64,000 nucleotides of DNA from a virus. Lineage: Duplodnaviria; Heunggongvirae; Uroviricota; Caudoviricetes. How positions within the stretch are numbered: position 1 is the first letter of the stretch; every line of letters begins with the position of its first letter. This document shows, in pieces, positions 2,252 through 44,195 of the stretch. The notes below the pieces were generated by a model. That model was not told where the DNA came from. It made no database searches and saw only the letters and a program-made list of their open reading frames with translations. Both the position numbers and the translations under genes were made by a program. Where the stretch lies: positions 1-64,000 of IMG/VR virus record IMGVR_UViG_3300039155_000018; one strand, written 5' to 3'.

Positions 2252-2554
2252 GTGACTATTAAAAAGTTCAAAGCTGTTGTGGCGGTAGAAAAAGAAATTG
2301 AGATTGAAATCAATACCGATGTAATCAATGAAAATTTCTTGAAAGAGTTCTCTGAAGGTATGTGGGAAGTCGATAATATTTCAGATATCGTAGAGCACAT
2401 TGCCTACTCCGTAGCAGTCGCAGATGGGTGTTTTATTGAAGGTGTGGGTAAGTATCCCAGTTATACAAAACGGGATGAAAATCTCTCTACTGTCGGAGTA
2501 CATGTTAAGTACAACGATTTTAACGACGGTATTGATGTTGTGGTGATTTATTAA
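2252..2554 (+). CDS. hypothetical protein
   Basis: A 100-aa ORF with a GTG start preceded by taggaggttttaga. Confidence 0.45.
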   Translation: MTIKKFKAVVAVEKEIEIEINTDVINENFLKEFSEGMWEVDNISDIVEHIAYSVAVADGCFIEGVGKYPSYTKRDENLSTVGVHVKYNDFNDGIDVVVIY

Positions 2555-2769
2555 TGAGCATTCTAATTTCAGTTTTTTGCATCTATCTTGCGATTGGTCT
2601 TGGTGTTGGTATTACATACCACACGCTGATGAACCATGTTGCTGAAACGTTTGAAGAAGACATTCCAGAGTTTAATATCAATCACGTCAAGTTTATTATT
2701 CACGTAATGGTTGCTTGGCCTTGGTTCATTCGAGACATTTCGGGAGATGAAGATGAGGAAGAGTGTTGA
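2554..2769 (+). CDS. small membrane protein
   Basis: A 71-aa ORF with an N-terminal hydrophobic helix (ILISVFCIYLAIGLGVGI) and an acidic tail. Confidence 0.4.
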   Translation: MSILISVFCIYLAIGLGVGITYHTLMNHVAETFEEDIPEFNINHVKFIIHVMVAWPWFIRDISGDEDEEEC

Positions 2770-2971
2770 GATTGATGTTGATCTCTTAGAGGATATCTTG
2801 AGTATTGCACGTCATGGAGCGTATGGGTCAGAATGGGATTGCATCCGACAGGCGGACACCTTACTTGAGGAGTTTGAAGAAAAGTCTCATCCAAGTAACC
2901 TTGACAACTTGTTTAACGGTCCCGGATATTTCTCTGGTAAGCCTGTTGACACAGAAGAAAATCTGGAGTAA
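2747..2971 (+). CDS. hypothetical protein
   Basis: An ORF in the 2711 frame. The likely start is the internal ATG preceded by GGAGATGAAG. Confidence 0.35.
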   Translation: MKMRKSVEIDVDLLEDILSIARHGAYGSEWDCIRQADTLLEEFEEKSHPSNLDNLFNGPGYFSGKPVDTEENLE

Positions 2972-3000
2972 TCTTTGAGCCACTAGAGCATTCAGTTCTG

Positions 3001-3669
3001 GTGGCTTTTGTTTATGGAGGAGAAAATGGAATGAACATGAATATCTTGATGATTGGGATGGGTTTTACCCTCACTGGATTGTCTTATCTACTTGCCACCG
3101 CGTTTGGGGTTCCTGTGGATTTGAATTGGTTGGAAATTATTGCTGTGGCAACTAGCTACTCTTGCACCATTCTGTTCATGCTACAGAAACGTGCTGCCTA
3201 TTTTTATGGCATTGTAAGCACTTTCTTCCTGTGCCTACTGTTCTTCACTCAAGGAATGATGGCACTATCTTTGTTTAATGGCATTTTGGTACTGTCTCTG
3301 GTTTACGGTTGGTTCCGGTGGGGGCCTGATGGTAAACCTCTCGCTGTGTCTTGGGTTAAAACTGAATGGAAAGCGTATGCCGGATACGTGCTCTTCTTTC
3401 TTGCTGTATGTGGACTATTCCGAATGATTGTAGGAGAGGGGTCAACACTCGATCTAACTTTAGCAGCAGGTAGTGCTACTGCTCAGCTAATGCTGGACAA
3501 CAAGCGTATTGAAAATTGGCTTGTATGGATTGTCATTAACGTGTTCTCGATTGGGTTTTTCTTGCAAGAAGGTTTGATTCTTCTGGCAATCCAGTTTATG
3601 ATGTTCCTTGTTAATGCAGTGGTGGCTCTCTACCGCTGGCACAAAGATTTGAAAAAGGAGGTTGTATGA
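3001..3669 (+). CDS. pnuC: polytopic membrane protein, PnuC-like nicotinamide riboside transporter candidate
   Basis: It is about 220 aa with several predicted TM helices and is W/N-rich near the C-terminus (NWLVWIVINVF). It is translationally coupled to the downstream NadR-like gene, the classic pnuC-nadR arrangement. Confidence 0.5.
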   Translation: MAFVYGGENGMNMNILMIGMGFTLTGLSYLLATAFGVPVDLNWLEIIAVATSYSCTILFMLQKRAAYFYGIVSTFFLCLLFFTQGMMALSLFNGILVLSLVYGWFRWGPDGKPLAVSWVKTEWKAYAGYVLFFLAVCGLFRMIVGEGSTLDLTLAAGSATAQLMLDNKRIENWLVWIVINVFSIGFFLQEGLILLAIQFMMFLVNAVVALYRWHKDLKKEVV

Positions 3670-4706
3670 GTGTAGGTATTGTTTTGGGAACCTTCCTACC
3701 TTTCCATAAAGGGCATGAGATGCTGATTAACTTCGCTAAGAACTACCCCGGCTGTGACAATTTGGTTGTCATCCTATCTTCTCGTTCGTTTGAGCCTATC
3801 ACTGGCCTTATGCGTTGGCTTGCTCTAAAATCCACATTTGAGGATGTATACATCTACCATCACGAAGACGACAATGCTCCTCAGAACCCTAAATCAGAAA
3901 ATGATGTGGAATTTTGGGACTACTGGAAGAAGGTAATTCGTCGTTCTATGTGGAGCTTTGAAGAGACTGATCCATGCTTTGTGTTTTCTTCGGAGTCTTA
4001 TGGTAGCAAGGTAGCTTCTTTGTTTGAAAACTGTCGTCATATTATGTTTGATTTCAATCGAGAGCATCAACAAGTCTCCGGCACTGTAATTCGAAACAAT
4101 CCGTTGGTGTTCCATGACAGCTTGAATATTCACATGGCGCGTTATTTGAAGAAACAGTTTGTTTTCTTTGGTGCAGAGAGTGTAGGTAAGACTACGTTCA
4201 CAAACGATGTGGCTGAATACTTCAATGCTAACATAACTGTGGAATATGCTCGGCCTTATTTGATGAGTCTTGAAGATAAAACTGTCACTGAAGAGAAGAT
4301 GGTTGATATCTTCAATGGACAGCATGCTCTTGAGGATATGGATCGTAACACTCTGTCTGGGAAGATTCTCAGTTTTATGGATACAGATATCCTCTCCACT
4401 TTCGGTTATGCTGAAATGATGGGGATGGATAGTTCTAATTTTGAGAATTTCAAGCTAAACACCGCAGATCGTGTTTATTTCGTACTCGGACAAGAGGAAG
4501 TATCTTTCGAAGAAGACATACTTCGTTACGGTGGAGATAGACGAGAGAGTAGTGATGAGTTCTGGCTTGATCTTCTGAAACGATACGGTGTGAAGGAAGA
4601 GAATATCCATTACGTGACAGGAGAATTCTTCCAGCGTCAACACTATGTGAAGAGTGTGGTACTAGAACATCTAGACAAACAATTTTATTTTGAGAGGGAA
4701 GTATGA
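3666..4706 (+). CDS. nadR: NadR-like bifunctional NMN adenylyltransferase / ribosylnicotinamide kinase
   Basis: The N-terminus has GTFLPFHKGH, the (H/T)xGH nucleotidyltransferase motif. A central FFGAESVGKTT Walker A fits the RNK domain. The 346-aa size fits NadR without the HTH domain. Confidence 0.65.
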   Translation: MSVGIVLGTFLPFHKGHEMLINFAKNYPGCDNLVVILSSRSFEPITGLMRWLALKSTFEDVYIYHHEDDNAPQNPKSENDVEFWDYWKKVIRRSMWSFEETDPCFVFSSESYGSKVASLFENCRHIMFDFNREHQQVSGTVIRNNPLVFHDSLNIHMARYLKKQFVFFGAESVGKTTFTNDVAEYFNANITVEYARPYLMSLEDKTVTEEKMVDIFNGQHALEDMDRNTLSGKILSFMDTDILSTFGYAEMMGMDSSNFENFKLNTADRVYFVLGQEEVSFEEDILRYGGDRRESSDEFWLDLLKRYGVKEENIHYVTGEFFQRQHYVKSVVLEHLDKQFYFEREV

Positions 4707-4939
4707 AAAGTGGTGAAGAATTGTTTGAGATGGATGAGGAGGAGATGGTTCAGGCGCTCAATAGTGCGATGCAGAAAGCTCTAAAAACTTACTTTGAGCA
4801 AAATGGTCCAATTGTAATTCCCGAAGAAGGGGCGACACTAGGCGAACTCTCAACCATCTTGAACCCTCTAGACAAGGTGTTACAAGATGTTCTAGAGCAA
4901 TCCCCAATCGTTAAATACATTAGCTCTAGTGTCCACTGA
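4703..4939 (+). CDS. hypothetical protein
   Basis: A 78-aa ORF. Its stop codon lies inside the first copy of the 13-bp tandem repeat. Confidence 0.4.
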   Translation: MKSGEELFEMDEEEMVQALNSAMQKALKTYFEQNGPIVIPEEGATLGELSTILNPLDKVLQDVLEQSPIVKYISSSVH

Positions 4940-5004
4940 TAGTGTCCACTGATAGTGTCCACTGATAGTGTCCACTGATAGTGTCCACTGATAGTGTACA
5001 CAGC
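4927..5004. repeat. five perfect tandem copies of the 13-mer TAGTGTCCACTGA plus one degenerate copy (TAGTGTACACAGC)
   Basis: Read directly in the sequence at 4927-4991, with a degenerate copy at 4992-5004. The 13-nt period is not a multiple of 3 and the repeat is intergenic. Confidence 0.9.
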
Positions 5005-5038
5005 TTAGCTGTAGAAAAGATGAAAAGAGGAGGAAATA

Positions 5039-5340
5039 TGAAAAAGTGGTTATTGAATAAACTAGGGCTTGTAGAGAAACGGCAACTAGACGAGTGGAAA
5101 GCCTATGCCTCTACAATCGAGAAGTGGATTTATGAAGGACGAGATATTACCTGTAGCGGACAATCTAGGGAACTAGCTAGAATGGTTACAGTCGATCTAA
5201 GCCTCTCGCAAGAGACAAGGGTCATCCTATTCAATGCAGGGCATGTAATCAACGCTGAGAACAGTTCGGTGCTAATTCATCCAGACGCTAAGGTTGTATA
5301 TTTTGACGATGACAACGGAATGAACACGGTGTGGCGATAA
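5039..5340 (+). CDS. hypothetical protein
   Basis: The ORF is in the track frame starting at 4981. The likely start is ATG 5039, preceded by AGAGGAGGAAAT. Confidence 0.45.
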
Positions 5341-5594
5341 GCATGGAAAGATTCCAAAGCACTTGGGGAGAATTGTACAACCCTTGGAAACATTGTAACA
5401 CCATCAAAGAGCGCTTAGGTTTCTTGGAAGAGTTAGAGCGTAAATTACATAGTGGAGATTATGAAATCGTGGAGGTGTGGACCCCTGTTGGTTATCATGA
5501 ACCTTCTTGCCCACGTATTTGTGAGATCAATGAGCTTGGGAAGCATAGGTTTGTACCTAATCCGAATTGTAAGGAGAAATTTGGTGAGCATTAA
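5331..5594 (+). CDS. hypothetical protein
   Basis: An 87-aa ORF with conserved-looking Cys/His content. Confidence 0.4.
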   Translation: MAISMERFQSTWGELYNPWKHCNTIKERLGFLEELERKLHSGDYEIVEVWTPVGYHEPSCPRICEINELGKHRFVPNPNCKEKFGEH

Positions 5595-6303
5595 AGAAGA
5601 ACTGAAGTCAGAAAACCAAGTAAAGCACTGCCGTGTATGCAAAGATGAAATCAACTGGACCAACACTGCCTCTGAAGATGGTTGGAGGGAGGTAGGGATC
5701 ACCTGCACTTGTGAGAAGTGCTTTGACAATCTCACTTTTGACATGGAAGAAAATATCGAAGAACTCTCTTACAATGTTAAGAAGCTGGTCCGAGAGTCAC
5801 CGAGTGTAGTTCTTGCAGGAGGGGCGCTGCGGATGCTTGTTGATCCTTGTAACGAAGAAATCTGCGACTATGACCTATTTGTGACAGATCAATCTGTACT
5901 TGAAAAACTGCTAACTGACATTCACGCTCTTGGTTACGTAAAAGTATTTGAATGTCCAAAACGAGAGCTATTCACGTTTGTAACGGAAGATGAGCCTAAA
6001 ATTCAAGTGATTAATAAGCGTCCTTACAAAGATTGTGAGGATATCATCTCATCTTTTGACATTACCGCTTGCTGTGCAGCTTGGGACGGAGAAAATTTCT
6101 ACAAGCATGAGCGCTTCGTCTTTGATGTACTGAACAAGCGCGTCAACTTAAATGTCGTGGAGTATCCAAACGCGACGCTGAAGCGTATTGTAAAGTACGT
6201 GCTGAAAGGGTACACTCTTACGCCCCAAGCCAATGACTTCTTCATCTCATCTGTTAATCAGATGGAGCTGACAGAAGAAAATCGTGTAATGTATGTAGAT
6301 TAG
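5583..6303 (+). CDS. Pol-beta-superfamily nucleotidyltransferase (CCA-adding / poly(A) polymerase head-domain-like)
   Basis: It carries LAGGALRMLVD followed by DYDLFV. This is the GGxxRD...DxD catalytic signature of class-II CCA/poly(A) polymerase head domains. The start was moved to GTG 5583, which has an AAGGAG RBS, because the upstream part of the track ORF overlaps the previous gene. Confidence 0.45.
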
Positions 6304-10529: not shown

Positions 10530-10704
10530 AATGCTCCAGCCATATTCGCGGAAATTCAATTTCCTCAAATTTCTCTCCAGCCTTAGTGCCGTAGGGGGCA
10601 AGTGATTACCATACAGTATATAAGAGTTATCTCAGAAGGAAATGATATAGAATAGGTAGTATAAAGCCTAATACTCCGTATTAGAGGTACATCCTAAGCA
10701 TTAT

Positions 10705-10741
10705 AAAGCCTCCTTGCTTATGTAGGGAGGCTTTCTTTTGT
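10705..10741 (+). terminator. rho-independent terminator closing the + strand block
   Basis: The stem AAAGCCTCC ... GGGAGGCTTT is followed by CTTTTG. Confidence 0.6.
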
Positions 10742-11663: not shown

Positions 11664-11692
11664 AAAAGCCCCCTAACAGGGGCTTTGTTTAG
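11664..11692. terminator. bidirectional rho-independent terminator
   Basis: The stem AAAGCCCC / GGGGCTTT has T-runs on both sides. It sits at the stop of the - strand gene 11689..12012. Confidence 0.6.
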
Positions 11693-12012
11693 ACTAGATC
11701 AGAAACTTTGAAGTTAAATACCTTATTCATCTTGTACACTCTCACGCTAAAGCTCCCGTTATTAAAAACCTTGGTTACTTCACCCTCTAGGGTCTCGGGG
11801 TAAGACTTGGTAAACCAATGCCAATCTTTAGGAAAACTATTGTTAACCACTACTTTATAACCCACTCCTACAGCCATGCTTTCTTCTTTAGCTTGATACT
11901 GGACAACCCACCCTCCTACAAGCCTGCTACTCCCGATACTCTTTTCGCCTTTCTGAGCATCGTAGAATGCCTTAGCTTCCTTGTAGTTGGTGAAGGTCTT
12001 GAGTGTGTTCAT
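11689..12012 (-). CDS. hypothetical protein
   Basis: A 107-aa ORF and the last gene of the - strand block. Confidence 0.45.
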   Translation of the reverse strand: MNTLKTFTNYKEAKAFYDAQKGEKSIGSSRLVGGWVVQYQAKEESMAVGVGYKVVVNNSFPKDWHWFTKSYPETLEGEVTKVFNNGSFSVRVYKMNKVFNFKVSDLV

Positions 12013-19534: not shown

Positions 19535-19777
19535 TTATTTAGCTGTCAAGCAGTTTTTGCAAAGACAAGTAGAATCTTCTACAGGCTCTGGGAGCGGGAG
19601 GAAAGTAGCTGTTGAAGTTACCTCTCCCATGCACCAGCAAGCACTACCACTTTTCCCGTCAAGCATTGCGCAGTATGTACCTTTGTTGCATTCAGGGCAG
19701 GAGTGGGTTGTAGTGCGTTGCTGAATCTCCTTCAATAGCTGCATTCGAGCGTCACCAGTTGAGTTCACATGCACCAC
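19535..19777 (-). CDS. Cys-rich zinc-ribbon protein
   Basis: It carries CPECN...CWC...CLCKNC. It lies directly upstream of the RNR N-terminal ORF. Confidence 0.4.
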   Translation of the reverse strand: MVHVNSTGDARMQLLKEIQQRTTTHSCPECNKGTYCAMLDGKSGSACWCMGEVTSTATFLPLPEPVEDSTCLCKNCLTAK

Positions 19778-20993
19778 CTGAACAAGCTTGAGCGCCCATA
19801 CTATCGACTTCTACAAACTTCTTCTCTTGTAGCTCTACAGAAAAATCTACATTCTGCACAGTCCGTTCGATTGTCTTCCACTTGTGAAGGTTGAAGCAAT
19901 CCTTTAGGCAGTTTGTCATTTCAAGAACATCATTGTTAAAGTAATTGTTAGCGAACTTTTTAGCGCGTCGCACCCAATCACGTTTCAACAGGTCTTCCTT
20001 TGCTTCAGGATCAAGCTTCAAGCCCCAGCCGTTGACTGTATCACAAGCCACCCACAGATTGTTGTTAAAGGCGTGCAGGCCATCTACAATCAAACCAGAC
20101 GCAAACATGCTAGCTTCGCCGTATTTATCCATAATCTGTTGTGCCGTGAACACTTCAGTGAACGGGGCTTGTGGGTATGCCTTATCACCCATCGCACTTA
20201 GCAAAGAGATACCAGCAAACCACTTACGGTTGTCGTAGATGTATTGCTCCACCTCGTTCCAGTCATCAACTGTAATGGTATTGGATACATTGTGCCGAAG
20301 ATTCGGATCAACACACAGCTCCACGTTAGTGCCATGCTCCACCCAATACTGCTGAGCCAGCTTCACATACTCTAGTTGTTTAACCCCCATCAAATCCTTC
20401 TTATAGATGCTACCTTCCTTACTGACAATCGGGAAGCTAACAACTTTGTCGGTTCCGGTATTAGACCACACACTGTTTTCCACCATCTTAGGGTTCTTTT
20501 CTATCATAAGGTGGAGCACGTCGTCTTGGTCATTCATCTGCACGTTACGGAAGTACATCGGAGAATGTTCCCCATGAATACCAGATGCAGTTCCAAGCAG
20601 GGTTGATGCGTTGCCCGACGGCTTTACACAAGTTGTACGAGCTGCCTGATTAATACCAATCATCTTTGCAACAACCTTGTTCCACTCTTTAACTACTTCG
20701 GCGCCGTCAACCATATTCTGCTTATCGAACAACACTTCAGGGTTATTCATCCAGCCGGTAATGCTTACGCCAATTAGTGCTTCCCGTTCAATAATCTCCT
20801 TAGATGCAGCAGAAAGATATTTAAAGTCAGTGTATCCTGCTTGTAGAGTACCAATAATCGAAGCAGCTTTGCAATTCGCAAGAAACTCTTCTCGGCTGTT
20901 GCAAGCAGAGCCACTAATTTCGCACAGGTTACATGCTTGGAAACCACTTCGCCCATCTGCCGTTTTCGGCAGTTTGCCAATCTCTACACCCAT
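19752..20993 (-). CDS. ribonucleotide reductase catalytic subunit, C-terminal ORF (NrdA/NrdJ-like part b)
   Basis: It has ACNLCEI, the NxCxE active-site motif, and the C-terminal redox pair CSGGAC, which resembles the CxSGAC tail of NrdA. It has its own AGGAG RBS and ATG. Confidence 0.75.
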   Translation of the reverse strand: MGVEIGKLPKTADGRSGFQACNLCEISGSACNSREEFLANCKAASIIGTLQAGYTDFKYLSAASKEIIEREALIGVSITGWMNNPEVLFDKQNMVDGAEVVKEWNKVVAKMIGINQAARTTCVKPSGNASTLLGTASGIHGEHSPMYFRNVQMNDQDDVLHLMIEKNPKMVENSVWSNTGTDKVVSFPIVSKEGSIYKKDLMGVKQLEYVKLAQQYWVEHGTNVELCVDPNLRHNVSNTITVDDWNEVEQYIYDNRKWFAGISLLSAMGDKAYPQAPFTEVFTAQQIMDKYGEASMFASGLIVDGLHAFNNNLWVACDTVNGWGLKLDPEAKEDLLKRDWVRRAKKFANNYFNNDVLEMTNCLKDCFNLHKWKTIERTVQNVDFSVELQEKKFVEVDSMGAQACSGGACELNW

Positions 20994-21084
20994 CTTGTTA
21001 CTCCTAATCTCTTAGGGGCTTAATCATTTCTGTTAAGCTCACATATTTTCACATGTGTGCGGACTATATCACCACCCTAGTCTC

Positions 21085-21765
21085 TTAGGGGCTAACCGTA
21101 CGGAAACTCTCATGGATTTTATATTGGAAGCTAGGTAACACATGCGGAGCAACCATTTCCATAAACTTGTAAAAATCCTTCATTCGAAGGCGCAGATAGT
21201 AATACTGATTCTGCCTATTAATGTTGAACTCAAGGTCAAGCTTTTCTTTCAAAGCTTTCTTCAGGATAAACAAATCCCCATAAGAAAGTCGTTTCATATT
21301 CAAGGTAACATTGTAGCTCCCGTTAACCAACCCCCTTTTAGGGTCAGGTTTAGTTGTCACAAAAGAGCCGTCGCACATGTAGAGGATTGCCAACGCCTCT
21401 GCGTCCAGCATCTTCAAAGCGTGCGGGTCAATCCCTTTATACTTTTCCGTATAAATTCGCCCATGAAGCGTAGTCAAAAGCGGGTGACGCTTACTCTCCA
21501 GCCGCAATTGAGGCTTACGGTCACACCCGTCAACATTGTAATCCTTCCTTTCAGAAACCCTACACCCAGTGATTTGCTCAAGAACATTTTTGCAGAAGAG
21601 AATATAATCCTCGTTATCTCTTTTCATGTTCATGGCAAAGAAGGCATTAGTCCCCTCTGTACGGTTCGGTGGAAAGTACAACCCACCGTCACCCATAACA
21701 ATGTAGCTGAGCAGTTTTACAAGTTCTTTCTTATTCACAGTTTCCATAGTCTCTACACTTCCCAT
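21085..21765 (-). CDS. LAGLIDADG-family homing endonuclease inserted in the RNR gene
   Basis: A single LLSYIVMGDGGLYF LAGLIDADG-type motif lies near the N-terminus. The 226-aa gene sits between the two RNR ORFs on the same strand. Confidence 0.55.
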   Translation of the reverse strand: MGSVETMETVNKKELVKLLSYIVMGDGGLYFPPNRTEGTNAFFAMNMKRDNEDYILFCKNVLEQITGCRVSERKDYNVDGCDRKPQLRLESKRHPLLTTLHGRIYTEKYKGIDPHALKMLDAEALAILYMCDGSFVTTKPDPKRGLVNGSYNVTLNMKRLSYGDLFILKKALKEKLDLEFNINRQNQYYYLRLRMKDFYKFMEMVAPHVLPSFQYKIHESFRTVSP

Positions 21766-21868
21766 ATCGGGTTAGCACGGGATTGTCTTCGCCTTTGAGC
21801 GGTCAGAGTTTCCCCGTTTTTAGGTTAGTTATTCAAAGCAGATCACTCTGCTAGGCCGCTAGTAGTTC

Positions 21869-22870
21869 TTAGTGAACAGTCAACGGATTGTAGGTAAATT
21901 CAAGATTCTCAGTAAAGATAAAAGCAGGCTCCCCGTAGTCACGTACAGACTTCATAATGTTTGCCCACTCTTCACGAGTAATTTCGTCGCGCAATAGCAT
22001 TACACTATTGTTACTTCGGCCTCTGGAGGGGTTGGTGATAAACCAATCTCCAGTTTTAGCCTTCAGCATCTCGTCGTCATCTTTAGAGAAGAGACAAATT
22101 GTTGCGCTCCTGCGAACACCGCCCGAAAGAACAGCGTCTGCCATAAACATTACAAAGTCATAAGCTGTAATCGGCTTCATTGCTACGGACTCTTTACTCT
22201 CTGCAATCTGCGCATCCAACAACTGCTCACACTTCTGTAAAGCAATCCGCAGACCGTCTGGACCCGGAGCTTTAAATCCTCCGCTAATCTCTGCACCTTT
22301 GGGGCGAATCTTGCTGAAGTCGAAGTGAACCTTACAACCCTTGTACTCTGGGAATGTACCACCATCCTCAAAGTAGCTACTGAGCAGCACACCAAAAGAA
22401 TCAGCCCAGCCTTCAATACTGTCTGGGATGGTGTAGACCTTGCTCTTTTTATCGAAACGTTTCTGAATTTTAGGAAGCTTTGCTACGTGGTGCTTTTGCA
22501 CGCTGAAGCCGACTCCACATCCACACAACAGCAAATACATCGACTCCTGAAACGCTGCTGCTCGGTCAATGTGAGTTGACACGCAGTTGTAGAGCCGGGC
22601 GTTGTGCTTGAAGAGTTGTTCACCGCCAAACTGCAAAGCTCGTTGAGCGCCTAGAACACTTTTCTTCTTATAAGCATTTTCTGCAAACTGAATAAGTTCT
22701 CCTAGTTCTGTAGTCATTACATCTTTATATTTGATGCGGTGCATATTCATTACACGTTCTACAGATTCTTCCCAAGTCTCGTAACGACCCTCGCCATCCA
22801 GCCACCGGGAGTAACCCATGTAGAATTTGGATTGGGCCATCATTTCTTTACCAACACCGCTGTTAATCAA
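21869..22870 (-). CDS. ribonucleotide reductase catalytic subunit, N-terminal ORF (part a)
   Basis: It carries LSGGVRRSATICLF, resembling the GGVRGGAATLFYP region of class I/II RNR alpha, and an upstream LLCGCGVGFSV candidate for the first active-site Cys. It ends at an in-frame stop about 100 nt before the endonuclease gene. Confidence 0.65.
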   Translation of the reverse strand: MINSGVGKEMMAQSKFYMGYSRWLDGEGRYETWEESVERVMNMHRIKYKDVMTTELGELIQFAENAYKKKSVLGAQRALQFGGEQLFKHNARLYNCVSTHIDRAAAFQESMYLLLCGCGVGFSVQKHHVAKLPKIQKRFDKKSKVYTIPDSIEGWADSFGVLLSSYFEDGGTFPEYKGCKVHFDFSKIRPKGAEISGGFKAPGPDGLRIALQKCEQLLDAQIAESKESVAMKPITAYDFVMFMADAVLSGGVRRSATICLFSKDDDEMLKAKTGDWFITNPSRGRSNNSVMLLRDEITREEWANIMKSVRDYGEPAFIFTENLEFTYNPLTVH

Positions 22871-24257: not shown

Positions 24258-25181
24258 TTAGTCTAGATGCTTTACAAATTCTTCACGTACAGTTTTGGTT
24301 ACTTCATTCTGTAATGATTTACTCCACAGCTTGTAGTTTTCTTCTACAACCTTCTTTACATCTGTACTTGTCTCTTTCTGGAAATCCTCAAGAATATCTT
24401 GAATTGTTAGACCAAGAACCTTCGGGAAATCTTTATTGGTGATTTGACCAATCTTACTAATCACATTACTTACTCGTTGGGGAGAATTATACTCCAGAAT
24501 ATTATCAAGTAAAGCTTGTTCTACTTCACTCAGACCAACGGCAGGTTTATGTTCTTTCTTGTTCTTCTTTTCCGTAAATGCTTCCGTTTTGTTCTTGAAG
24601 TATACGCGACTACCATTCTTAAACCAAGCAGGAATTACTGGTTCAATCACCACACCTTCTGCGAAGTTTTCACCTTCAAAACCCTTTTGGGTCAGGAGCG
24701 ATTGGAATTTGTTCTCTGCATCCATACATCCCTTGAAGAAACCTATGTAGAGAATGGGAGTGAAAGGAATGCCTATTTCGTAGGCAAGCCGAGCAGAATC
24801 AACTTTATTTAGGATAACACCATCAACTACGAATTCAAAAGCTGCGAAGTCTTTCTCGCCGTATACAACCTCTTTCTGAATACCTTGCCCATGCAGCTCA
24901 CCGTAAATCACAATCATGAAACAAGGGTTATTATTGTACCAATCCTTAATCTTCTGCTCATACTTGTTAATCACAGATTGACAATTGTAGAAAGTCCCCT
25001 CTACGAATTGACTACGAGATGCAACCTTAAAATCTTTCCCATCGTACCAAAAGCTGAAGTTTGCACCATGAATCTTCTCGGTGACGATCCACAACTGCTC
25101 ATCTAGACCTTCCAGCAACACCTTATCAATCAGGTTTTGACGGTAAGTGTTTTCAAGGCTTGTGAATTTCTTAAATTCCAT
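24258..25181 (-). CDS. rnl2: RNA ligase 2 (T4 Rnl2-like)
   Basis: It carries FKKFTSLEN, VTEKIHGANFSF (nucleotidyltransferase motif I KxHG), GELHGQGIQK and YGEKDF. These are near-colinear with T4 Rnl2. The start was taken at the second ATG (MEFKKF). Confidence 0.8.
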   Translation of the reverse strand: MEFKKFTSLENTYRQNLIDKVLLEGLDEQLWIVTEKIHGANFSFWYDGKDFKVASRSQFVEGTFYNCQSVINKYEQKIKDWYNNNPCFMIVIYGELHGQGIQKEVVYGEKDFAAFEFVVDGVILNKVDSARLAYEIGIPFTPILYIGFFKGCMDAENKFQSLLTQKGFEGENFAEGVVIEPVIPAWFKNGSRVYFKNKTEAFTEKKNKKEHKPAVGLSEVEQALLDNILEYNSPQRVSNVISKIGQITNKDFPKVLGLTIQDILEDFQKETSTDVKKVVEENYKLWSKSLQNEVTKTVREEFVKHLD

Positions 25182-25638
25182 CTTTGTTCCTCCTATACAA
25201 TACAATTTCAAATTCTTTATTGCTCACAATCTTAACCCCGTTCTCAGGAACAATCCATGGGTAATCTTCGATTGGGAAGAACACATCTGCTTTCCGCTCG
25301 GGAAGATTGAAGAAGTGTGTGACGTAGATCAAATCCACATGCTCCGCAAGTAGTTTATACGTCTTAGCCCCGCCAATCACCACCTTATCATCCATCCATC
25401 CCCAGCAGACACCTGCTTGGGAGTATGTTTCAAGAGTATCAATATCTTCTCGGTGCAAGACAATCAGTTCGCGGTTGGTCATCTTAGGCAGTGTCTGTGC
25501 TGTACGATACCCAACGATTAACTCCTTCTCTTGGGTAAATCCAGAGAAGAACCAAAGGTCCCGCATGTCCTTGTACAGCAACTCGTCCCCACAACCAATT
25601 CCCCAATCAGGACTCACTGCTACGATTGCTGTTAACAT
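25171..25638 (-). CDS. frd: dihydrofolate reductase
   Basis: It has AIVAVSPDWGIG and VIGGAKTY. The 155-aa size and its position next to thymidylate synthase fit, as in T4 frd-td. Confidence 0.7.
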   Translation of the reverse strand: MLTAIVAVSPDWGIGCGDELLYKDMRDLWFFSGFTQEKELIVGYRTAQTLPKMTNRELIVLHREDIDTLETYSQAGVCWGWMDDKVVIGGAKTYKLLAEHVDLIYVTHFFNLPERKADVFFPIEDYPWIVPENGVKIVSNKEFEIVLYRRNKDGI

Positions 25639-27932: not shown

Positions 27933-28157
27933 TCAACCTTTTGTATCTTCTAGGTATGCTTCTGAAGCCACCTTCAGATTACGAATCCAAGTAGGGTCGC
28001 TGGAGTCAGCCGCTGAGTTCGTTACAACCCTCCCTGTTTGCAGATAGTCCTCTGCCCACTGGACATGCTGCCCAAAAGGCATTGGCGGGAATATCCCTTC
28101 GGCATAACATTCCATAAACTCTCTAGTGGGAATAACAGGATTAAAATACTTTTCCAT
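27933..28157 (-). CDS. hypothetical protein
   Basis: A 74-aa ORF. Confidence 0.35.
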   Translation of the reverse strand: MEKYFNPVIPTREFMECYAEGIFPPMPFGQHVQWAEDYLQTGRVVTNSAADSSDPTWIRNLKVASEAYLEDTKG

Positions 28158-28920
28158 ACTTCTCCATCAAAAACTCTAGGGAAACAAACATAGGGCAACC
28201 AAACCCATCTTTCACATCGTGGAGCATAGTGACACCCCTGAAATGATTATTACCTTGAAACCCTTTGTAGTCCTCATCAAAAGGATAACAAGCCCCATTG
28301 ATAATACCAATCTGCATTTTACCGTCAATACTTGGGCGAATAGCCACGTCAAGAGTTTGTTTATGCCCGCATACAAAGCTCCGACCTACAGTTTTGAGTT
28401 GATTCATTGCAGTACCACCATAAGGTTTACCTGTGAATGGGTTAGCCAGATAGTGTACAAAGAAAATACCCTCGATTTCAACAGGTTGCAGGAATGGAAT
28501 GACTTCCCAACCTTGATTTTCAAGACCGAGAGTTTCCATTCCTACAAAGCCTTGGAGTTCTGGCATATTACTTGCCAGCCGGTCGAAGCGCTCCTCGTGG
28601 TTTCCCGTACAAAATACTAGGCGAGGATTATACACTTTCTTCTTCGACTGGCGCTGACGTTCTTGCAACTCGCGCAGGGGCGCCAACAGAAGGTCAAGAC
28701 CCTTATTACCAGCAGCAATGTCTGCCTTCAGGCGACGACCTTCAAAGGAAGCTTTACCTTTGTCATAAATACTCAGTGACGGGAAGTCAAAATTGTCTCC
28801 TATATGCACGACAACGTTCGGGCGTTTGTTAACAATGTAGTTCCCTATAGCTGACATGTAGGACAAATCTTCACCGGGCTTACATTGTGTATCTGCCACA
28901 ACTAGAATCTTTTTACTCAA
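28141..28920 (-). CDS. calcineurin-like metallophosphoesterase
   Basis: It has VVADTQ, HIGDNFD and GNHEERF. The start was set at TTG 28920 after AAGGAG. Confidence 0.55.
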   Translation of the reverse strand: MSKKILVVADTQCKPGEDLSYMSAIGNYIVNKRPNVVVHIGDNFDFPSLSIYDKGKASFEGRRLKADIAAGNKGLDLLLAPLRELQERQRQSKKKVYNPRLVFCTGNHEERFDRLASNMPELQGFVGMETLGLENQGWEVIPFLQPVEIEGIFFVHYLANPFTGKPYGGTAMNQLKTVGRSFVCGHKQTLDVAIRPSIDGKMQIGIINGACYPFDEDYKGFQGNNHFRGVTMLHDVKDGFGCPMFVSLEFLMEKYGKVF

Positions 28921-29125
28921 AACCACTCTCCTTAAATATAGGCATCTCAGATGCCGATTTGATTCCATAGAACACAAAGATAGCAGAACAACTCTACACT
29001 CTTACTTGCTCCGTACCAAAAGAAGAAATTATCTTCAAAATTAATCATTACTCATCCCTTAACTCATATAAGATTTACAGATGGGTGGGATATCCAGCTC
29101 GGTTGTGCTGAACTGATGGGTGGTT

Positions 29126-42777: not shown

Positions 42778-43345
42778 CTTCCATCATTCGCTTGATAGTG
42801 TCAAGACTCACGTTGTATTTCTCTGACAGCTTCTCTTCACGAGTCTTCTCAGGGATGTTTCGGAAATGAAAAATGTCCTTGATGAAGGCATGACAATATG
42901 TGTGGTTCAGCAGGTCGGTAATAAAAATCACTTCCTGATTCTTGCTCCAATAGGTAATGCGCACCTCATCATTTACACCAATACACATGATGTATTCCTT
43001 ACCTACTTCAAGATCGCCTACAGAGAGGATTTCTTTCGACTCTTTTTCCCCGTAGAATGGAATCAGGCACTCAGGAATTTCTACGCCTTCTTCTTTGACA
43101 GTGAAGTACCAGTATTCTTCTGAGTCACTCCATACCCAAGAGATATCCGCGAGCTGCTCGGTGACTTCCGTACTCCCATTCTCCTTGTAACGCACTCTAC
43201 CGAGGGGCACATATTGCGAGAGCCTAACAGTCCCGAGAAACGGACCCTCTTCCCAAGAATTTAAACTGTCAGCTTTGTTGACAGTTTCCCAAGTTTCCTT
43301 GGTCCACTCATATTCCTTACCCGGAATGTAATATTGCTTAGCCAT
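42749..43345 (-). CDS. hypothetical protein
   Basis: A 198-aa ORF. Confidence 0.45.
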   Translation of the reverse strand: MAKQYYIPGKEYEWTKETWETVNKADSLNSWEEGPFLGTVRLSQYVPLGRVRYKENGSTEVTEQLADISWVWSDSEEYWYFTVKEEGVEIPECLIPFYGEKESKEILSVGDLEVGKEYIMCIGVNDEVRITYWSKNQEVIFITDLLNHTYCHAFIKDIFHFRNIPEKTREEKLSEKYNVSLDTIKRMMEDGLIQEEED

Positions 43346-43989
43346 TACTGCTCCTCCTTTGGAGCGATTGGTTCTCCCCCTATAGCATTTAAAGCTTTTC
43401 TAAGGATGATCGAGTTTACTTGGTCCTCACTACTAGCGCAGCCAAATTTACCCTCAAACCGTTGTTTCATTTTCTGAGGGTGAGGATCACCCCATTCATA
43501 ACCTTCACTTAGAAACATACTTTTAGAGGCAAGAGTCTTCTTGAATGCATTGGTGAGTCGAATATTCATATTAACATCTGCCCAAATCTTGCAGATGGAG
43601 ACATCCATATACTCGATCACTTTAAATTGGCTACCTAGAGTTACAAGCTGGATAAACTGAACCTCCATGCCGGCAATTTTACATTGCCATACACGAATCA
43701 GGGAAGGCATTTTATGATAGAGATTACTCATCTCTCGCACACCACTCGAACTACTTCCATGAATTTCTGAGAGAGTTTTGATTTCCACATCTTTAAAGAC
43801 CTTCTGTAGTTGATTCCTGCAAGCACTCACTGTTGTGGCTGTAGAAACGTAGTAGAAGTCTAGGTCATTACACTCATTTCCAAAATACCAATCACGAGGG
43901 GCACCACCAGCCAGTACGCAATAAGGGTCAATAACCTTCAACTTCTCGTATACACCCTGAGCTGTAGCTTTTTGCTGTTCGATTGTCAT
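43345..43989 (-). CDS. Pol-beta-superfamily nucleotidyltransferase (CCA/poly(A) polymerase head-like), second copy
   Basis: It has VLAGGAPRDWYFG ... NDLDFYY, the GGxxRD / DxD signature. The start was set at ATG 43989 (GGAGGTAAGCGA upstream), which overlaps the stop of 43986..44195. Confidence 0.45.
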   Translation of the reverse strand: MTIEQQKATAQGVYEKLKVIDPYCVLAGGAPRDWYFGNECNDLDFYYVSTATTVSACRNQLQKVFKDVEIKTLSEIHGSSSSGVREMSNLYHKMPSLIRVWQCKIAGMEVQFIQLVTLGSQFKVIEYMDVSICKIWADVNMNIRLTNAFKKTLASKSMFLSEGYEWGDPHPQKMKQRFEGKFGCASSEDQVNSIILRKALNAIGGEPIAPKEEQ

Positions 43990-44195
43990 TCGCTTACCTC
44001 CTTCACTTGTAGAGAAATTACAACTTCGCATGTTTGATTGCGAGGAATCGTTGCTTCACATTTTTCTTTCAGGGTGTGCACACCACTGTAGCTAAAACCA
44101 AGAACCTTTTCATTAGCGTAAGTATGCACAATAAGGATAAAGAACGTAAAAATACCCCACCCTACGCACCTCAACAGCCATTCTTTCATTTTCAC
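43986..44195 (-). CDS. small membrane protein, first gene of the long - strand block
   Basis: A 69-aa ORF with one TM helix (GWGIFTFFILIV). Confidence 0.35.
   Translation of the reverse strand: MKMKEWLLRCVGWGIFTFFILIVHTYANEKVLGFSYSGVHTLKEKCEATIPRNQTCEVVISLQVKEVSE

Follow-up and report, generated by a model that had tools for sequence, protein, structure and literature searches.

Two adjacent genes, one pnuC-like and one nadR-like, were found on the + strand of the 64,000-nucleotide stretch of DNA analysed here (the window). Their open reading frames span positions 3001-3669 and 3666-4706, as the initial annotation had reported, and the pnuC start was then corrected. The start codon of the mechanical ORF list, GTG 3001, falls within a terminator-like hairpin that closes off the upstream gene, whose stop codon lies at 2971. 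Because of this location, and because a Shine-Dalgarno-like sequence lies 8 nt before ATG 3031, the latter is the likelier start of pnuC. Genes called independently on two further assemblies have this same start, which gives a protein of 212 aa. The two genes had been described as a translationally coupled pair, which is plausible in view of the ATGA overlap and the GGAGG that precedes it. All coordinates are collected in Table 1.

Table 1. Features of the pnuC-nadR locus. Nucleotide positions are those of the window; residue numbers are those of the NadR-like protein.
Feature	Position	Strand	Details
Terminator-like hairpin and T-run	2977-3014	+	13-bp stem, 5-nt loop (2977-3007), then TTTTGTTT; sequence scan
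Shine-Dalgarno-like GGAGGAG	3016-3022	+	8 nt 5' of ATG 3031
pnuC-like gene	3031-3669	+	212 aa; 222 aa if started at GTG 3001
Coupling junction	3657-3669	+	GGAGG 3657-3661, then ATGA 3666-3669; nadR start codon overlaps pnuC stop codon
nadR-like gene	3666-4706	+	346 aa; HTH domain absent
H14-K-G-H17 (HxGH)	nt 3705-3716	+	NMNAT domain
W84/W87 and S109-E110			NMNAT domain
S138-G-T-V-I-R143 (SGTxIR)	nt 4077-4094	+	NMNAT domain
Walker A G169AESVGKTT177	nt 4170-4196	+	RNK domain
E193-Y-A-R196			RNK domain
Walker B D239-T-D241	nt 4380-4388	+	RNK domain
Lid L286-RYGGDRRE-S295			RNK domain

Both genes are under purifying selection, with dN/dS ratios against one related phage contig of 0.11 for pnuC and 0.13 for nadR. 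Together with HMM E-values between 1e-25 and 1e-57, these ratios indicate that the pair is not a chance finding.

The product of the first gene had been taken for a polytopic membrane protein, and its hydropathy profile agrees with this, showing at least seven hydrophobic segments and a 7-TM core. The Pfam model PF04973 matched the protein from end to end (E 4.8e-31), scoring 108.5 bits where the cut-off is 27.3. The NCBIfam equivalog model for PnuC, TIGR01528, gave 63.2 bits against 42.45, so that both models exceeded their curated cut-offs in the HMM check proposed in the initial annotation. In PHROGs the protein was assigned to phrog_1880 (E 1e-25), and the PnuC of N. mucosa (PDB 4QTN) was matched by sequence with an E-value of 0.0036. 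The internal 3-TM repeat was also picked up by BLASTP. Pnu transporters carry the motif WxxW(x)3[D/N] in TM6, with N in PnuC and D in the thiamine transporter PnuT, and gate tryptophans after TM3 and TM7 (PMC5749112). In the alignment, W163, W166 and N170 of the phage protein correspond to W182, W185 and N189 of the N. mucosa protein, and W97 and W203 correspond to the gate residues W106 and W228. From its sequence, the pnuC product is classified as a Pnu-family facilitator of the PnuC subfamily. Members of this family work by facilitated diffusion and metabolic trapping by a kinase whose gene adjoins that of the transporter (PMC5749112). Specificity for nicotinamide riboside (NR) finds indirect support in the TIGR01528 score above cut-off and in the strict linkage to nadR.

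The second protein is predicted to combine an NMN adenylyltransferase (NMNAT) domain (about residues 1-160) with a ribosylnicotinamide-kinase (RNK) domain (about residues 161-346), as had been proposed from the motifs GTFLPFHKGH and GAESVGKTT, which were located at residues 8-17 and 169-177, respectively. Motif positions in the L. lactis NadR were taken from PMC7221760. The NMNAT and RNK motifs of the phage protein were kept in alignments of 10 and of 81 sequences. In the latter, which covers the clade, the invariant positions were G16, H17, W84, W87, S109, E110, R132, R143, G169, E171, S172, K175, E193, R196, D239, D241, R287 and the lid residue R293.

The NadR models of NCBIfam recognised the protein at scores far below their equivalog cut-offs: TIGR01526 gave 125.2 bits (E 3.1e-36) against 341.15, and NF005988 gave 72.7 bits (E 3.1e-20) against 201. 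The NMNAT and RNK parts of these models cover residues 1-337. No N-terminal HTH was found in the protein, the NF005988 alignment running from position 65 to position 407 of the 411 in the model, and residue 3 is already part of the first Rossmann strand of the NMNAT domain. The PHROGs assignment was phrog_3462 (E 1.2e-57), and the sequence matches in the PDB were 6GYE, 9X6F, 8X7F and 1LW7. The AlphaFold model had a pLDDT of 95 and a pTM of 0.91, with the kinase domain above a pLDDT of 90 except in the lid. When this model was searched with Foldseek, the top eight matches were all NadR chains (E 1e-16 to 1e-18) and the next match followed at E 5e-6. The only full-length structural matches were NadR structures, with TM-scores of 0.69 for 1LW7 (E 1.8e-18), 0.71 for 8X7F and 0.64-0.66 for 6GZO, 6GYF and 6GYE. 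Profile, PDB sequence and structure searches thus agree on NadR, and assignment to an unrelated family, which the initial annotation had named as a possible refutation, was not observed.

Identity to characterised NadRs is just 20-26%, and two structural differences were noted. The nicotinamide-recognition loop contains a 6-residue insertion relative to Bas30_86 and to the H. influenzae and E. coli enzymes; the insertion is conserved in the clade and accompanied by a clade-specific motif, DDxAPQNPxxxxDxxFWxYW, in this nicotinamide/NMN-recognition loop. The long insertion that follows strand 2 in proteobacterial-type NadR was absent from the aligned phage protein.

The phage origin of the DNA, also claimed initially, is borne out by PHROG matches within the window, both to tail genes (sheath, baseplate wedge, tape measure and fibre) and to genes for a DNA polymerase and a primase-helicase. 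The sheath protein shares 36-38% identity with its counterparts in Pseudomonas myoviruses, and the source is a myovirus-like phage of ~86 kb. Ribonucleotide reductase and thymidylate synthase are also encoded in the window. The pnuC-nadR pair lies within a block of small + strand genes, which are probably early genes. A scan for sigma-70 promoters around the operon returned six sites, against 6.4 expected in shuffled sequence, and therefore no promoter is claimed. Across the window, no Rfam element or riboswitch reached the gathering threshold and no tRNA was found. The PHROGs/Pfam scan took in 28 of the ORFs with 200 aa or more, the other five being part of the tail module, and the window itself spans all but ~22 kb of the 86.3-kb contig. 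No NAD+-dependent phage enzyme was detected among these 28 ORFs. By its match to PF01068 the DNA ligase falls into the ATP-dependent ligase family, and neither it nor the RNA ligase gave any sign of NAD+ dependence; therefore, no phage enzyme with a special demand for NAD+ was seen.

A 78-aa gene at 4703-4939, whose ATGA (4703-4706) overlaps the nadR stop codon, was considered as a third component of the module and rejected. It had no Pfam or PHROG match, and jackhmmer found it solely in two assemblies of the same phage; it is absent from a 73%-identical relative (L004) and from 49 related IMG/VR loci. About 0.9 kb downstream of the module, the gene at 5584-6303 carries a precomputed Pfam match to Gad2 (PF26128, anti-Gabija). 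This match was not reproduced with the local Pfam copy, and its support is a hit to phrog_1614 'nucleotidyltransferase' (E 3.5e-9) alone, so the candidate Gad2 identity is treated as a lead.

The arrangement of the two genes is strongly conserved. In all 49 IMG/VR loci of the NadR clade pnuC was located upstream of nadR on the same strand, abutting or overlapping it in 29 of them, and pnuC was likewise upstream in 68 of 80 cellular loci. Several of the 49 viral contigs exceed 200 kb. The cellular carriers of the operon include Saccharibacteria, Actinomycetes, Hyphomonadaceae and cyanobacteria, and overlapping pnuC-nadR operons occur in cellular genomes of this same HTH-less clade. Because viral and cellular loci share this order, phages probably acquired the two genes together, as a complete operon of cellular origin. 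The genome-contig scan yielded no cellular homologue with more than 38% identity and pointed to no host. NadR homologues are encoded in 704 GenBank phage records, and PHROGs already holds phage families for both proteins. A megablast search of positions 2500-5500 against 50,697 phage records gave no match; the phage therefore has no close sequenced relative and the locus no annotated twin.

A phage module of this kind was predicted in 2022-2024 and experimentally shown in 2026 as NARP3. The NadR-PnuC operon was proposed as a further NAD+ reconstitution pathway by Osterman et al. 2024 (bioRxiv 10.1101/2024.02.11.579819) and validated in a T5-like phage by Yan et al. (Sci Adv, Aug 2026; PMC13464706). 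The prototype, from Escherichia phage TrudiRoth, consists of the NadR-like Bas30_86 (PDB 9X6H/9X6F) and the PnuC-like Bas30_87, with homologues in T5-like (Epseptimavirus) phages. Bas30_87 binds NR and Bas30_86 turns NR into NAD+, W90 and Y93 of the latter being the aromatic pair that stabilises the NMN moiety. With the pair present, NAD+ is restored and phages plate again on cells defended by Sir2-HerA or DSR1. A BLAST search with the operon recovered 124 modules, described as largely limited to phages of Enterobacteriaceae (all PMC13464706). The initial annotation had regarded an NR-based route as a distinct solution to NAD+ depletion, which holds in substance; the novelty does not, as the route had already been both proposed and demonstrated in these two studies.

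The present locus shares with NARP3 the adjacent same-strand genes, carried by a virulent phage, for a PnuC-family transporter and an HTH-less NMNAT and RNK enzyme, the (H/T)xGH, SxTxxR, Walker A/B and WxxW(x)3N motifs, and presumably the chemistry NR to NMN to NAD+. The two differ in gene order, with nadR preceding pnuC in T5-like phages and pnuC preceding nadR here, and in the NadR protein, which at this locus has the 6-residue nicotinamide-loop insertion and lacks the long one after strand 2. They differ also in their carriers, a ~86-kb myovirus-like phage whose host is probably not an enterobacterium as opposed to a siphovirus. Identity is ~25% for both proteins, and the NadR-like protein is no nearer to Bas30_86 than to cellular NadRs. 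BLASTP aligned residues 1-198 alone with Bas30_86 (25% identity, E 9e-18); phmmer against the NARP3 enzyme gave E 2.9e-13, and the clade HMM found a protein identical to Bas30_86 with E 2e-42. The pnuC product matched Bas30_87 at 25% identity (E 1e-6). A nucleotide or high-stringency BLAST search with the NARP3 operon would have missed this locus.

Among the residues that mutagenesis showed to be needed in Bas30_86 and Bas30_87, F11 (F10 here), S37 (S38), P84 (P72), F110 (F107), S112 (S109), E230 (E223) and PnuC N180 (N170) are retained. In Bas30_86, K10, E80, G89, D115 and D275 are replaced by T9, D68, S77, S111 and V270, respectively; in Bas30_87, N45 is replaced by S42 and Q94 falls in a gap. 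Most of the altered positions vary too among the NadRs of H. influenzae, E. coli and L. lactis or in the N. mucosa PnuC. A strict reading of these residues as markers of catalysis was avoided, since even those three NadRs do not conserve several of them.

On these comparisons the locus is best placed as a distant new member of the known NARP3-type system, belonging to a separate lineage. The occurrence of such a lineage, with opposite gene order, in viral contigs and in cells suggests that phages have captured pnuC/nadR modules at least twice independently, and that NR-based NAD+ reconstitution is distributed much more widely than the published count. The rebuilding of NAD+ from NR as a means of escape from NAD+-depleting immunity is real and already published as NARP3; the modest point added here is that the same two-gene logic appears in a deeply diverged lineage. 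The generality of NARP3 could usefully be examined in members of this clade.

Among deposited phage genomes the closest homologue of the NadR-like protein is that of the Sinorhizobium phages phiM12/phiM19 (Emdodecavirus), with 36.9% identity over 99% of the protein. There, gp316 is annotated as 'nicotinamide mononucleotide transporter PnuC' and the NadR-like gp319 as 'transcriptional regulator protein'; the host is an alphaproteobacterium. The same NadR clade, the upstream pnuC and the missing HTH are common to these phages and to our locus. In phiM19 the genes are not translationally coupled because two small ORFs lie in between, whereas the locus genes overlap, and TxGH replaces the HxGH of the locus protein. 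The cellular NR salvage systems (NadR of H. influenzae, 1LW7, L. lactis, 6GYE, and E. coli, 8X7F; PnuC of N. mucosa, 4QTN) belong to the same two families and folds. Enterobacterial NadR differs in having an N-terminal HTH and repressing NAD genes, while the enzyme described here is HTH-less and encoded by a phage; in E. coli, moreover, pnuC and nadR are unlinked (PMC13464706). NARP2, or NadV and NatV (Nampt and NMNAT-Nudix) of Vibrio phage KVP40, is likewise a two-step phage route ending in an HxGH NMN adenylyltransferase that forms NAD+. It differs in starting from nicotinamide and PRPP via a phosphoribosyltransferase, in the fusion of NMNAT to Nudix and in having no transporter. NARP1 consists of Adps and Namat; neither a PRPS-like nor a Nampt-like gene was found among the 28 ORFs of the window scanned with PHROGs and Pfam.

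The explanation preferred here, with a probability of roughly 0.72, is a phage-borne NR salvage operon of the NARP3 type whose main benefit would be against NAD+-destroying defences. The analysis shows homologous proteins with the motifs and fold of their families, encoded in an operon whose two genes are under purifying selection and stay linked across loci; the substrate, both catalytic activities, the timing of expression and the anti-defence benefit at this locus are what we infer. The PnuC-like protein would give NR from outside the cell a passive, facilitated route across the inner membrane. The C-terminal P-loop kinase domain of the NadR-like enzyme would then convert NR to NMN at the expense of ATP, thereby trapping it, and the N-terminal HxGH domain would transfer the adenylyl group of a second ATP to NMN, forming NAD+. 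Because the DNA-binding domain of bacterial NadR is absent, the protein would be a pure enzyme and no repressor. Expressed from the probable early block of small genes, the pair would increase the NAD+ of the infected cell, or bring it back, without depending on host regulation. The likeliest selective benefit would be that replication is maintained once SIR2-, TIR- or DSR-type NAD+-destroying defences fire, as for the prototype NARP3.

The same chemistry from NR through NMN to NAD+ might instead give general metabolic support: in nutrient-poor hosts it would supply the NAD(P)+ that the phage needs to make nucleotides and DNA, the two genes being a classical auxiliary metabolic pair with no specific role against immunity. 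The ribonucleotide reductase and thymidylate synthase of the window do speak for a phage that invests in nucleotide metabolism, many cellular genomes, among them those of the vitamin-dependent Saccharibacteria, carry pnuC-nadR as an ordinary housekeeping operon for salvage, and surveys of jumbo phages call such genes NAD+ synthesis clusters, defence not being invoked (PMC11662467). Against this, rescue of phages from Sir2-HerA and DSR1 is a specific effect of the prototype module (PMC13464706), the 28 scanned ORFs included no NAD+-dependent phage enzyme, and the Gad2-family match nearby is a lead in the other direction. A purely metabolic role is considered unlikely, although both benefits can coexist and are not mutually exclusive.

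The salvage reading also supposes that both halves of the enzyme are active. In some bacterial NadRs, such as those of H. influenzae and E. coli, RNK activity is weak or tightly feedback-inhibited, and the lid at this locus reads EEDILRYGGDRRE where Bas30_86 and the H. influenzae NadR have DDGLR. One half could accordingly be catalytically dead or purely regulatory, for instance with the kinase-like domain as an NAD+/ATP sensor, and host enzymes would be needed to make NAD+ from NR. This is the least probable of the readings considered, with the invariance of K175, D239, D241 and the lid residues R287 and R293 in 81 homologues, the purifying selection on both genes and the confidently modelled kinase domain (pLDDT >90 except in the lid) all arguing against it.

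A different substrate or product, such as nicotinic acid riboside or another pyridine or vitamin nucleoside, or an NAD+ analogue or nicotinate adenine dinucleotide, is very unlikely. It would fit with the presence of thiamine and riboflavin transporters in the Pnu family (PMC5749112), with the conserved insertion and motif of the nicotinamide/NMN-recognition loop, with the fact that, of the three residues by which Bas30_87 binds NR, the pnuC product keeps one, and with NadR-like scores under the equivalog cut-offs. The transporter, however, scored above the TIGR01528 cut-off and has N, not D, in its motif; the invariant W84 and W87 align with the NMN-stabilising W90 and Y93 of Bas30_86; and the fusion with an NMNAT-type HxGH domain and the strict pnuC linkage are hallmarks of NR salvage. 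In a related and equally long-shot proposal, the pnuC-then-nadR lineage would have come from cells in a capture separate from that of the T5-like NARP3, and its loop insertion and motif might confer a different chemistry, using another pyridine nucleoside or yielding an NAD+ analogue that host NADases process poorly. If this were true, the module would be more than a plain refill pathway.

The first protein of the pair was assigned to the PnuC family. The Pfam search proposed in the initial annotation was positive, PF04973 (NMN_transporter) aligning over the full length with E 4.8e-31 and 108.5 bits (gathering score 27.3), and the NCBIfam PnuC equivalog TIGR01528 reached 63.2 bits, exceeding its cut-off of 42.45. 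Seven or more hydrophobic segments were counted, as expected for the polytopic membrane protein described. Alignment with Neisseria mucosa PnuC (4QTN) placed W163, W166 and N170 at W182, W185 and N189, the Pnu-family signature WxxW(x)3N, and both gate tryptophans (W97 and W203) were present. The WxxW(x)3 motif and its role have been described for the family, the thiamine transporter PnuT having D where PnuC has N (PMC5749112).

The second protein matched the NadR NMNAT-kinase models TIGR01526 (E 3.1e-36) and NF005988 (E 3.1e-20), with scores far under the curated equivalog cut-offs in both cases. Of the 411 positions in the full-length NadR model, only 65-407 aligned; the HTH is thus absent from this 346-aa protein, which leaves it unable to serve as a NadR repressor. 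PDB sequence matches were NadR proteins only: L. lactis 6GYE (E 1e-15), 9X6F/9X6H (E 2.9e-13), E. coli 8X7F (E 9e-13) and H. influenzae 1LW7 (E 1.4e-12, residues 2-339). Alignment with these and with metagenomic relatives showed the catalytic motifs in place, in the NMNAT part (H14xGH17; W84, W87; S109-E110; S138GTxIR143) as well as in the kinase part (Walker A G169-T177; E193xxR196; Walker B D239-T-D241; lid L286RYGG...R293). The two motifs quoted initially, GTFLPFHKGH and GAESVGKTT, were found at residues 8-17 and 169-177. The catalytic positions listed were invariant or nearly so among 81 sequences of the clade, the HTH-less NadR lineage with the order pnuC then nadR. An AlphaFold2 model built from this alignment (pLDDT 95, pTM 0.91) was compared with the PDB by Foldseek. 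Eight NadR chains were the sole full-length matches (E 1e-16 to 2e-18, TM 0.64-0.71); the next stood at E 5e-6, followed by single-domain archaeal NMNAT and P-loop nucleoside/nucleotide kinase matches. Since profile, PDB-sequence and fold results all pointed to NadR, the proposed architecture held, and the assignment to an unrelated family that would have refuted it did not occur. Metagenomic contigs in ENA, Logan and JGI (longest 86.3 kb) encode the identical protein, named 'NadR type nicotinamide-nucleotide adenylyltransferase' by JGI.

The two ORFs originally reported agreed exactly in coordinates with the mechanical ORF list. The nadR ATG overlaps the pnuC TGA and a GGAGG lies shortly upstream, which makes translational coupling plausible. 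The start of pnuC is most likely ATG 3031, not GTG 3001, because the GTG lies inside a terminator-like hairpin that closes the upstream gene, GGAGGAG precedes the ATG at proper spacing, and the product has 212 aa in gene calls from two independent assemblies of the same phage.

Features of the window discussed in the text
Feature	Position	Strand	Details
Terminator-like hairpin	2977-3007		13-bp stem, then T-run
First ORF	3001-3669	+	222 aa from GTG
pnuC, most likely extent	3031-3669	+	
GGAGG	3657-3661		
ATGA overlap	3666-3669		
nadR	3666-4706	+	346 aa from ATG
Tandem repeat TAGTGTCCACTGA	4927-5001		13 bp, 5.8 copies, 98% match
Candidate Gad2-family gene	5584-6303	+	239 aa, ~0.9 kb downstream of nadR
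Region without ORF of at least 60 aa	10530-11689		1.16 kb
Terminator-like hairpins	near 10700-10740 and 11665-11695		
Ribonucleotide reductase large subunit, apparently split	19752-22870	-	
ORF of the split gene	19752-20993	-	phrog_367 positions 397-665
LAGLIDADG homing-endonuclease ORF	21085-21765		between the halves
ORF of the split gene	21869-22870	-	phrog_367 positions 42-370
RNA ligase; metallophosphoesterase	24258-25211; 28141-28977	-; -	phrog_548, E 8.5e-74; phrog_221, E 2.9e-68
Second nucleotidyltransferase	43345-44031	-	phrog_1614/phrog_10174

A phage route from nicotinamide riboside (NR) to NAD+ had been put forward as a distinct solution. Such a route is real but no longer novel. 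NadR was listed among phage NAD+-synthesis enzymes countering NADase effectors in a 2022 survey (PMC9503650), and phage nadR, usually in an operon with pnuC, was suggested as possibly another NAD+ reconstitution pathway (Osterman et al. 2024, bioRxiv 10.1101/2024.02.11.579819). The pathway was named NARP3 by Yan et al. (Sci Adv, 12 Aug 2026, PMC13464706). In its prototype, from the T5-like Escherichia phage TrudiRoth, Bas30_87 binds NR and Bas30_86 (structures 9X6H, 9X6F) converts NR to NAD+; together they restore both NAD+ and phage plating in the face of Sir2-HerA and DSR1, and 124 modules were counted, largely in Enterobacteriaceae phages (PMC13464706). Thus, the idea of phage NR salvage is correct and already in print. 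PHROGs families exist for both proteins (phrog_1880, phrog_3462). By tblastn, 704 out of 50,697 deposited phage records contained NadR homologues, the closest being that of Sinorhizobium phage phiM19 (36.9% identity). There gp319 is the NadR-like protein, and gp316, annotated as PnuC, is encoded upstream of it with two small genes in between.

Judged by sequence, the pair is a rather distant relative within the known NARP3-type system. Identity to Bas30_86 and Bas30_87 was about 25%, no nearer than that of this NadR to the H. influenzae, E. coli and L. lactis enzymes (23-26%). T5-like NARP3 phages have nadR then pnuC, whereas the clade has the reverse order, and it lacks the long insertion that follows strand 2 in proteobacterial NadR. 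The lineage falls outside the 124 modules, and what is chiefly gained is evidence that a second lineage exists, one that is widespread, has the gene order inverted and derives from a cellular operon.

Pnu transporters are facilitators, and substrate accumulation needs phosphorylation by a kinase usually encoded next door (PMC5749112). Here the trapping kinase would be the C-terminal domain encoded by the coupled nadR. NR would enter via PnuC, the RNK domain would use one ATP to trap it as NMN, and the HxGH domain would use a second ATP to adenylylate NMN to NAD+. Taken together, the analyses suggest a working NR-to-NAD+ module with counter-defence as its main benefit (probability about 0.7). 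There is a slight chance of an altered substrate or of partial inactivity. The nicotinamide-recognition loop of the clade is longer by an insertion of six residues and bears a conserved motif of its own (DDxAPQNP....D..FWxYW). Several positions that Yan et al. mutated are not conserved here. Most of these also vary among bacterial NadRs, so they are no argument against activity.

That the same chemistry brings a purely metabolic benefit appears unlikely. The module lies in a plus-strand block of mostly small genes (1-10.5 kb), where genes for an ATP-dependent-family DNA ligase and a metallophosphatase are also found. The candidate Gad2 gene in the neighbourhood lends weak support to an anti-defence setting. 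It had a precomputed match to PF26128 (Gad2, anti-Gabija), which a separate Pfam search did not reproduce, and a match to phrog_1614 'nucleotidyltransferase' (E 3.5e-9); Gad2 is a predicted nucleotidyltransferase (bioRxiv 10.1101/2023.05.01.538930). Among the 28 ORFs of at least 200 aa scanned in the window, neither Nampt-, PRPS- or Nudix-type NAD+ genes nor an NAD+-dependent enzyme was found.

The window is phage DNA, as initially stated. It encodes tail sheath, baseplate wedge, tape measure and tail fibre, together with family-A DNA polymerase, primase-helicase, exonuclease, ribonucleotide reductase, thymidylate synthase and RNA ligase. Identity of the tail sheath to its counterparts in ~90-100-kb Pseudomonas myoviruses did not exceed 38%, and megablast of 2500-5500 against the 50,697 phage records returned no sequenced relative.

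The linkage of both genes was evaluated by scanning IMG/VR with the clade alignment and searching each locus with PnuC and NadR profiles. In 49/49 viral loci a pnuC homologue preceded nadR on the same strand, no more than 2.2 kb away; the genes abut or overlap in 29 and are at most 400 nt apart in 9 more. Direct overlap was also seen in relatives at 73% and 48% NadR identity. The same clade search over one genome per prokaryotic species recovered members (at most 38% identity) in Saccharibacteria, Actinomycetes, Hyphomonadaceae, cyanobacteria and others, with pnuC upstream in 68 of 80 loci, and the overlapping pair was also present on a JGI contig whose surrounding genes are plainly cellular. 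Because this arrangement is common to viral and cellular loci, the operon is probably a cellular invention taken over whole by phages. Against the 73% relative, dN/dS was 0.11 for pnuC and 0.13 for nadR, so selection maintains both genes.

The HTH-less operon of the clade (L058 7294-9029 and loci L060-L139) was common in Saccharibacteria (TM7) MAGs, with further occurrences in Actinomycetes, Hyphomonadaceae and Anabaena/Dolichospermum. Several of these proteins are labelled 'HTH-type transcriptional repressor of NAD biosynthesis genes' by JGI, which looks like a propagated misannotation. Compared with the nearest related phage contig (window 3031-4706, L004 5372-7032), pnuC (93% aa identity) had a dS of 0.30, nadR (73%) one of 1.57; this five-fold difference suggests a recombination breakpoint near the junction, with allele exchange inside the module.

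The perfect-looking tandem repeat overlaps the end of a 78-aa ORF that follows nadR and extends into the intergenic gap ahead of the following gene. Five exact copies were present, against four in the ENA assembly of the same phage, so copy number is polymorphic; a regulatory or binding-site array is possible. A homologue of the Gad2-like gene lies ~3 kb downstream of nadR in an unrelated IMG/VR locus (L021), and the window holds a second phrog_1614 nucleotidyltransferase. The ORF-free region, flanked by hairpins, separates convergent plus-strand (early-like) and minus-strand blocks and gave no tRNA or Rfam match. The apparently split ribonucleotide reductase points to an intron or another kind of invasive insert, although no group I/II intron of Rfam matched at the gathering threshold. 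In the replication block, the RNA ligase and metallophosphoesterase may act together in counter-defence by tRNA repair, in the manner of T4 Rnl/Pnk.
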